In this document: one piece after another, positions 6,945 through 7,301 of the stretch
Position numbering within the stretch: the first letter of the stretch is position 1
Layout: the number at the start of each line of letters is the position of its first letter
Assembly: GCF_013315695.1 (NCBI RefSeq)
Contig: NZ_CP054353.1
Source of the DNA: Escherichia coli
GTDB taxonomy: Bacteria; Pseudomonadota; Gammaproteobacteria; Enterobacterales; Enterobacteriaceae
Reading direction: 5' to 3' (one strand)
Length of the DNA: 64,000 nt
Translations under genes and position numbers: made by a program
Notes under the pieces: generated by a model
Database searches by the model: none
What the model was told of the DNA's origin: nothing
Seen by the model: only the letters and a program-made list of their open reading frames with translations

Positions 6945-7301
6945 TTACTCGAGAGGAAATTGGTTATGAATACAATCAAGTTTTCTTGCCCAGAATGTGG
7001 TGGCGAAGTCTTTGACACATCCTTTAAGCCGCAGGGCTCTGACAGTTTCGCGGGAGCCATCTGCAAAAATTGTGGTCACCTTGTAACTGAAGATGAGTCC
7101 TCGCAGTTCGATGACGAAATCGTTGACAATATCTTCGGTGCACTCACCAGAGACTTTCTGAAATAAAGACGCATACCGCTTAGTTACCGCTCTGATAATT
7201 CTTACCTGTCCGGCAATGGCGCTGATATCAATATAAAGCGCCATCGCTGTTTCTTTGCTGATCCCTGGACGCCTTCCATTCTGATGTTTGACTTCGCCCA
7301 C
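6945..7301 (-). CDS. First ORF of the dicB-type operon (ydfA/ydfB-like region); extent uncertain
   Basis: GTG start with RBS GAGGA 7 nt upstream, just downstream of a TTGCCA-17-TAAATT promoter; MGEVKHQNGRRPGISKETAMALYIDISAIAG...; fully antisense to the 6966-7166 ORF. Confidence 0.45.
   Translation of the reverse strand: MGEVKHQNGRRPGISKETAMALYIDISAIAGQVRIIRAVTKRYASLFQKVSGECTEDIVNDFVIELRGLIFSYKVTTIFADGSRETVRALRLKGCVKDFATTFWARKLDCIHNQFPLE
6966..7166 (+). CDS. Candidate zinc-ribbon protein, 66 aa, antisense to the operon ORF
   Basis: MNTIKFSCPECGGEV...CKNCGH (two CxxC pairs), GAGG RBS; opposite in direction to the surrounding leftward operon. Confidence 0.3.
   Translation: MNTIKFSCPECGGEVFDTSFKPQGSDSFAGAICKNCGHLVTEDESSQFDDEIVDNIFGALTRDFLK

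Follow-up and report, generated by a model that had tools for sequence, protein, structure and literature searches.

Positions 6945-7301 of a 64,000-nucleotide (nt) stretch of Escherichia coli DNA (assembly GCF_013315695.1, contig NZ_CP054353.1), referred to here as the window, carry two open reading frames (ORFs) that occupy opposite strands of the same DNA. The longer ORF, A, runs on the reverse strand. The shorter, Z, runs on the forward strand, contains two CxxC pairs (CPEC and CKNC) and is fully nested in A, so that the C-terminal two-thirds of A is antisense to Z. The codons of the two frames are exactly opposed, position 1 of a Z codon facing position 3 of an A codon. Judged from the conservation of both frames in related phages and prophages, A and Z are probably both genuine genes. 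An earlier note on this DNA had described a 118-residue reverse ORF with a GTG start and a 66-residue forward CxxC ORF, each with a ribosome-binding site, and both are found in the sequence. The same note implied that only one of the two could be real; the evidence presented below favours both. The features of the pair are as follows.

6945-7301, reverse strand: A, an ORF of 118 amino acids (aa), characterized by its match to phrog_21318, by annotation in phage records and by the Prokaryotic Genome Annotation Pipeline (PGAP), by selection tests and by an AlphaFold model.
7299-7301 and 6945-6947, reverse strand: the GTG start codon and the TAA stop codon of A, read from the sequence.
7244, reverse strand: internal ATG, an alternative start of A that gives a 99-aa product, read from the sequence.
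7308-7314, reverse strand: Shine-Dalgarno-like AGAGGAT, 7 nt 5' of the GTG of A, read from the sequence.
6966-7166, forward strand: Z, a 66-aa zinc-ribbon ORF starting at an ATG, from the ORF list, PGAP and NF047912.
6960, forward strand: TTG, an alternative start of Z that gives 68 aa, read from the sequence.
6951-6957, forward strand: GAGAGGA, the Shine-Dalgarno sequence of Z, read from the sequence.

The pair recurs in every relative that was read, namely in phages and prophages of E. coli, Klebsiella, Citrobacter and Enterobacter, in phage HK639 and in metagenome contigs, down to protein identities of ~30% and lower. In the Citrobacter, Klebsiella and Enterobacter prophages whose Z is 60-70% identical, A is always open on the opposite strand. 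At ~30% identity the pair is also present in the Klebsiella phages ST974-OXA48phi18.2, KP12 and 2b LV-2017, in HK639 and in Enterobacter phage ENT1. Scans of IMG/VR, two of them ascertained on A and two on Z, yielded several hundred loci, including ~14 lineages in which the identity of Z is 70% or less. A is open opposite the entire Z in every one of the Z-ascertained loci, and searches that started from Z alone and from A alone both gave loci in which the partner is open in the same register. The stop codon of A is located either at codon 2 of Z (TCA) or just upstream of the Z ATG. At its other end, in the IMG/VR loci, A runs 22-90 codons beyond the Z stop codon.

A profile search of 1.84 billion representative proteins resulted in 220 A-family clusters at 50% identity, nearly all of them 85-120 aa long, and neither partner was found without the other across these clusters. 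In 139 of 147 A-family representatives the four residues of A that face the Z cysteines are restricted to Thr and Ala, and Ser, Gly and Val are absent, as would be expected with RCA as the antisense of TGY; the remaining eight are truncated, except one that has Lys at one position. In each of four very divergent relatives of A, chosen on A similarity alone and located on contigs of 38-58% GC, the Z-like ORF is intact and comprises a Met, the CxxCG...CxxCG motif and a stop codon. If one ORF were the shadow of the other, the chance of this co-occurrence would lie between ~1e-10 (for A being open) and ~1e-14 (for Z being open), or between ~6e-4 and 6e-5 if only four deep clades are considered.

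Selection was assessed by classing sites according to the effect of a change in both frames, in the manner of OLGenie (N, non-synonymous; S, synonymous). In six lineages of the window's clade pSN is 0.42, pNS 0.27 and pNN 0.11, with a dNN/dSN of 0.26 (confidence interval (CI) 0.15-0.39) and a dNN/dNS of 0.41 (CI 0.27-0.58). In the part of A outside the overlap the pN/pS of these lineages is 0.44 (CI 0.29-0.67). An independent set of 14 deep lineages gave nearly the same result, the two sets having dNN/dSN of 0.26-0.27 and dNN/dNS of 0.41-0.49, with CIs below 1. Parsimony events were pooled over four shallow clades and the deep set, with event counts treated as independent, and were compared with a neutral class comprised of A-synonymous sites outside the overlap and sites synonymous in both frames. 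Relative to this class, A-synonymous changes that alter Z occur at a rate of 0.36 for transitions and 0.22 for transversions (P 4e-15 and 1e-18), and Z-synonymous changes that alter A at 0.77 and 0.39, respectively (P 0.008 and 5e-10). Changes that alter both frames occur at ~0.14 (transitions) and ~0.15 (transversions) of neutral. Outside the overlap, non-synonymous changes in A occur at 0.38-0.49 of the synonymous rate (P ~1e-9). These rates indicate purifying selection in both frames and a multiplicative picture, in which omega would be ~0.2 for Z and ~0.5 for A. Replacements in Z are conservative (P < 2e-4). A synonymous-site pattern favouring only one frame had been named beforehand as the outcome that would speak against the pair; the constraint found extends to both frames.

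The allelic record differs between the two ORFs, A being uninterrupted in 81 alleles and Z having at least four independent knock-outs. In O157-type prophages (locus L002, 1833-2033, and many IMG/VR loci) codon 14 of Z, equivalent to 7005-7007 of the window, is changed from GAA to TAA, and the same change replaces Phe by Leu in A. Z is also damaged independently by E44*, by C36S and, in a Klebsiella clade, by a nonsense codon. About 2.5 nonsense events in A would be expected within clades under neutrality and none was seen, which is not significant on its own.

Z scores 57.2 bits on the NCBIfam model NF047912 (ECs_2282 family putative zinc-binding protein), for which the cutoff is 37, and the alignment covers positions 1-56 of the 60 in the model. 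PGAP gives Z the name of this family at the identical E. coli locus. E. coli strain 1436 (NZ_CP184030.1) is one strain whose locus is identical to that of the window. The four cysteines of Z are invariant in 26 diverse relatives. By its sequence Z is a zinc ribbon and is predicted to bind zinc. The earlier idea of a genuine convergent zinc-ribbon gene thus gains support from the NF047912 match, the invariant cysteines and the purifying selection, and the comparison with homologous prophages, which that note had proposed, found both the CxxC ORF and its four cysteines kept. The annotation and literature searched gave no function for the NF047912 family. The Lar family restriction alleviation protein model TIGR03655 scores below its cutoff on Z (15.6 bits vs 39.6), and the PHROG Lar-like family matches Z only at E 0.0075-0.0098. 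The candidate defence protein PDC-M14A of PADLOC matches the Z of the window at E 0.0019 and a Klebsiella Z at 7e-6, and the match is limited to the N-terminal part of the 152-aa model (from 18-67 to 18-87, depending on the Z used). Domains resembling Z also form the N-terminal part of longer proteins, phrog_4852 and PDC-M14A, which argues that the domain exists on its own without implying a function.

A matches phrog_21318 over residues 1-99 of 99 (E 9e-66), and distant relatives of A match phrog_29546 with E values of up to 9e-61. Pfam, NCBIfam and PADLOC gave no family match to A, and Pfam gave none in 30 members of the A family. An AlphaFold model of A, calculated from a 30-sequence alignment, has a predicted local distance difference test score (pLDDT) of 88.7 and a predicted template modelling score (pTM) of 0.71 across the whole chain. 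The predicted fold, β-α-α-β-β-α, spans the part of A that is overlapped by Z; a structure search with the model found no matching known fold. Both ORFs are already present in databases as hypothetical proteins, and their dual-strand nature is not noted in the annotation seen. A is annotated in the records of phages Evi and PPompW, and phage records call only A. PGAP calls Z where the locus is intact, but turns to the opposite strand and calls A where Z has the nonsense codon of the O157-type prophages. Since PGAP picks Z or A by one nonsense mutation and phage records contain only A, each database holds half of the locus. Literature searches found no paper on either ORF and none on ECs2282, and those on HK639 and on overlapping genes gave only general or unrelated cases.

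Two structured elements flank Z, one on each side.

7211-7260, forward strand: terminator-like hairpin (7211-7249) with a T-rich tail, folding free energy -19.2 kcal/mol, z -2.8.
6893-6965, no strand assigned: structured leader stretch between the A stop/Z start and ydfC, recognized by its conservation in other lineages and by its fold.

In the hairpin the stem ATGGCGCT (7216-7223) pairs with AGCGCCAT (7237-7244), outer pairs extend the stem, and the tail CGCTGTTTCTTTGCTG follows; in the window the A codons for KETAMALYIDISA contain the hairpin. An equivalent hairpin of 9-11 base pairs (bp) is located 33-42 nt 3' of the Z stop codon in most lineages (B, D, E, L144, L156), with folding free energies of -12 to -15 kcal/mol, and the hairpins of most lineages have a T-rich tail and compensatory changes. 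The hairpin looks like an intrinsic terminator of Z, a putative assignment made from its sequence. Read on the other strand, the same bases encode residues ~5-14 of A, with the T-run read as Lys and the arms as Val-Val-Ser and Asp-Thr-Thr. The stem pairs the third positions of codons with one another, and it is on those pairs that the compensatory changes in the deep group fall. Thus both the hairpin and the protein sequence of A are preserved.

The leader contains interleaved stems, GCCTG (6897-6901) with CAGGC (6915-6919) and ACCAC (6908-6912) with GGTGG (6922-6926), which show compensatory variants in other lineages. This arrangement suggests a pseudoknot. Alignments made for a consensus structure of the leader were poor. 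The stems are followed by one or two hairpins composed of TTCC, a CA-rich loop and GGAA, and a leader hairpin at 6929-6957 includes the Shine-Dalgarno sequence of Z. Rfam gave no match to the leader or to the hairpin in the window and in eight related loci. A 37-nt core of the leader (6896-6932) is also found next to ydfC in prophages that have ydfA/ydfB instead of A/Z.

The cassette occupies at least four genomic contexts: the pL position in HK639, the cII position after cro, the dicB operon and a tail operon. In all annotated contexts examined A is co-directional with its neighbours. In HK639 the A homolog follows pL and an annotated putL-like antiterminator RNA as the first gene. In compact operons A overlaps at its start with the stop codon of a cro-like gene and at its end with the following gene, and on another contig it overlaps the upstream gene by ATGA. 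These overlaps resemble those of a translationally coupled operon. Each lineage has a Shine-Dalgarno sequence and a start codon ahead of A, and strong combinations of a Shine-Dalgarno sequence with ATG are found in lineages other than that of the window. The N-terminal part of A that lies outside Z has an Asp in 129 and a Gln in 111 of the 147 representatives. Taken together, the contexts show that the cassette, as judged from sequence, moves as a unit between operons.

Several relatives have individual peculiarities. In Klebsiella phage 2b LV-2017 (L098, 2297-2764) A/Z lies between the tape-measure and tail genes, a typical moron position far from the immunity region, and A has a 60-aa N-terminal extension. 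In some Citrobacter prophages (L005, 2995-3519) A is fused to an N-terminal domain of ~78 aa (phrog_23433), resulting in a 174-aa protein. In one Enterobacter prophage Z has the same orientation as the neighbouring sieB. Klebsiella phage KP12 has a sub-threshold match to the P22 sar RNA (L096, 4293-4357, forward strand; 34.8 bits vs 43) near Rha/KilA-type genes.

A number of observations weigh against the view that both ORFs are genes. For either strand the case is wholly comparative or predicted. The codon-opposed register is the one in which shadow ORFs are commonest, the chance of an open frame being 0.05-0.64 per lineage with phage codon usage; as such a frame is easily open by chance, the window alone proves nothing, and it is the comparative data that carry the proof. 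In recent E. coli polymorphism A looks almost neutral, with Z-synonymous transitions at 0.31 vs 0.32 for the neutral class, and the ratio of non-synonymous to synonymous polymorphism at the N-terminus of A is ~0.8. The replacements in A that result from Z-synonymous changes are not significantly conservative (P 0.17). Part of the conservation of the A N-terminus coincides with the arms of the hairpin and is therefore not purely a protein-level signal. The AlphaFold model of Z has low confidence (pLDDT 55) and was not used for a fold search. There is also a precedent in the ORFs antisense to dnaK, which, like A, are conserved and were entered in a protein family database, as Pfam PF10712; the study that describes them reports that their translations are not under negative selection (10.1101/724807). 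The register, which gives such a shadow a chance of 0.08-0.64 per lineage, the near neutrality in E. coli, the character of the replacements and the dnaK precedent would all fit a locus in which only Z is real and A is its shadow, and so would the finding that the most conserved residues of A in the overlap mirror the Cys, Gly and Pro of Z. This explanation is nevertheless unlikely. A is open in all lineages, including the one on a contig of 38% GC, which a shadow would achieve only with the small joint probability given above. It runs 22-90 codons past Z, with the conserved Asp and Gln there, and has a Shine-Dalgarno sequence and start of its own. Outside the overlap the ratio of non-synonymous to synonymous change in A stays under 1, and within it there is a deficit of Z-synonymous changes. 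Furthermore, the model of A is confident, its start and stop overlap the neighbouring genes, and the compensatory changes of the hairpin fall on its third codon positions. The extension with its conserved residues, the start signals, the ratios below 1 and the confident fold distinguish A from the PF10712 ORFs.

The converse, that only A is real and Z is its shadow, is very improbable. It would agree with the phage records, which annotate only A, and with the AlphaFold results, which are confident for A and not for Z. However, the restriction to Thr and Ala in the A family is explained only by cysteines on the other strand, A-synonymous changes are reduced to 0.22-0.36 of neutral, and the replacements in Z are strongly conservative. 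The start codon, Shine-Dalgarno sequence and terminator-like hairpin of Z are kept, the joint chance of Z being open is even smaller than that of A, and related zinc-ribbon domains head longer proteins. The earlier note offered another explanation, according to which the reverse ORF consists of two short genes of the Qin prophage, ydfA and ydfB, joined by read-through opposite a genuine zinc-ribbon gene. Its attraction is positional, because ydfA-ydfB of Qin, like A/Z, sit between the dicA-controlled operon leader and ydfC. The protein comparison that the note had proposed was made, and BLASTP of A against YdfA and YdfB of K-12 gave no alignment at E <= 100. A contains no match to DUF1391 (YdfA), and the Qin DNA between the shared operon leader and ydfC is unrelated to A/Z. 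Moreover, ydfA and ydfB both lie on the operon strand with no opposite-strand gene annotated. A belongs to one conserved family of proteins ~95 aa long, for which a single fold is predicted. The read-through explanation was ruled out on the basis of the BLASTP result, the lack of DUF1391, the unrelated DNA and the single family, and such an origin now has practically no probability.

With A and Z both taken as genes, the locus would be a compact cassette of two genes whose proteins are encoded by one stretch of DNA, each on its own strand. Selection, as the comparison shows, maintains both frames. Z would be a small zinc-ribbon protein gene with its own ribosome-binding site and its own terminator-like hairpin. 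A, a predicted α/β protein of ~95-118 aa, would be an ordinary gene of whichever phage operon hosts the cassette, and here it would be the first gene of a repressor-controlled dicB-type early operon. Being oriented against this operon, Z may be expressed independently in the repressed prophage, and A would be produced once this operon is switched on. The two products could then become mutually exclusive, through convergent transcription and complementarity over their full length. We put forward only tentatively, as a possibility still short of an even chance, that the cassette is obligate and ancient, with Z made in the lysogen and A on induction, and that the overlap serves both as a switch, by convergent transcription and RNA pairing, and as a linkage between the two genes. 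If this is true, A/Z would be without precedent in bacterial viruses as an antisense protein-coding pair that is family-wide and deeply conserved, and it would provide a natural model of two proteins co-evolving on one DNA stretch.

The surroundings of the cassette in the window contain the following features.

7411-7406 and 7388-7383, reverse strand: promoter-like site, TTGCCA and TAAATT separated by a 17-nt spacer, from a promoter scan.
7420-7437, reverse strand: operator-like palindrome TGTTAGATTGATCTAACA (TGTTAG...CTAACA), just upstream of the promoter-like site, read from the sequence.
7474-7881, reverse strand: DicA/CI-like helix-turn-helix repressor gene, from Pfam HTH_3 (E 1.2e-14) and PGAP.
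7959-8189, forward strand: cro-like gene.
6655-6873, reverse strand: ydfC, the next operon gene downstream of A, from PGAP on the identical E. coli locus.
6262-6313, reverse strand: gene of the small RNA DicF, from Rfam (76.7 bits vs a gathering score of 48).
5899-6087: dicB.

The TTGCCA-17-TAAATT promoter of the earlier note was recovered by the scan, and the palindrome TGTTAGATTGATCTAACA adjoins it; a second palindrome of this type is located at ~7932-7950, between the repressor and cro genes. The order of repressor, promoter and operator, A/Z, ydfC, DicF and dicB is that of a Qin-like early-left region and bears out the placement of the locus at the head of a dicB-type operon. The 5' leader of this operon (7318-7378, reverse strand) is nearly identical to the K-12 Qin leader, although the genes after it differ, and holds the short hairpins ACACCG/CGGTGT and CCCC/GGGG. 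An STnc100-like Rfam match below threshold (34.4 bits vs 47; 6055-6264, reverse strand) lies between DicF and dicB; Rfam gave no other match in the window besides DicF. The window also encodes an 813-aa exonuclease (3176-5617, reverse strand), annotated as RecE-like, whose long N-terminal half is acidic and of low complexity and which has a CxxC...CxxC motif in the middle of the protein.

It is still disputed whether long antisense overlaps encode two functional proteins in bacteria and phages. Most of the proposed antisense pairs are young and narrow in their distribution, with expression data as their only basis, and artefacts are known among the 'families' of databases. A/Z offers evidence of the opposite kind, a deep, family-wide co-conservation of both frames with clear nucleotide signatures. 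The cassette is only ~360 bp long, is found in tractable phages (HK639 and E. coli prophages) and has natural Z-null alleles in the O157-type prophages. As single-base changes can kill one frame and be silent in the other, the two-gene question is directly testable.

Control by antisense RNA is well known in phage immunity regions, where P22 sar acts against ant and lambda oop against cII, the antisense product being a non-coding RNA in both cases. Like sar and oop, Z would give a short transcript (here a putative one) with its own terminator, convergent to and overlapping an early gene beside the repressor. Unlike them, it carries a conserved protein-coding frame.

The antisense overlapping genes of enterohaemorrhagic E. 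coli and of Pseudomonas are described as evolutionarily young and taxonomically narrow (PMC9927249, PMC8850804), and in published overlaps the 'mother gene' is found far more widely without its overlapping partner (PMC9927249). These cases share with A/Z a long opposite-strand overlap, expression signals of their own and two-frame selection as the basis of the argument. A/Z is different in that it is known from comparison alone and neither partner was found by itself in the 220 clusters. It differs also in its architecture, because the shorter gene is fully nested and its terminator-like hairpin lies inside the coding sequence of the other gene. Among functional antisense pairs of bacteria or their viruses, A/Z would be one of those best supported by comparison.
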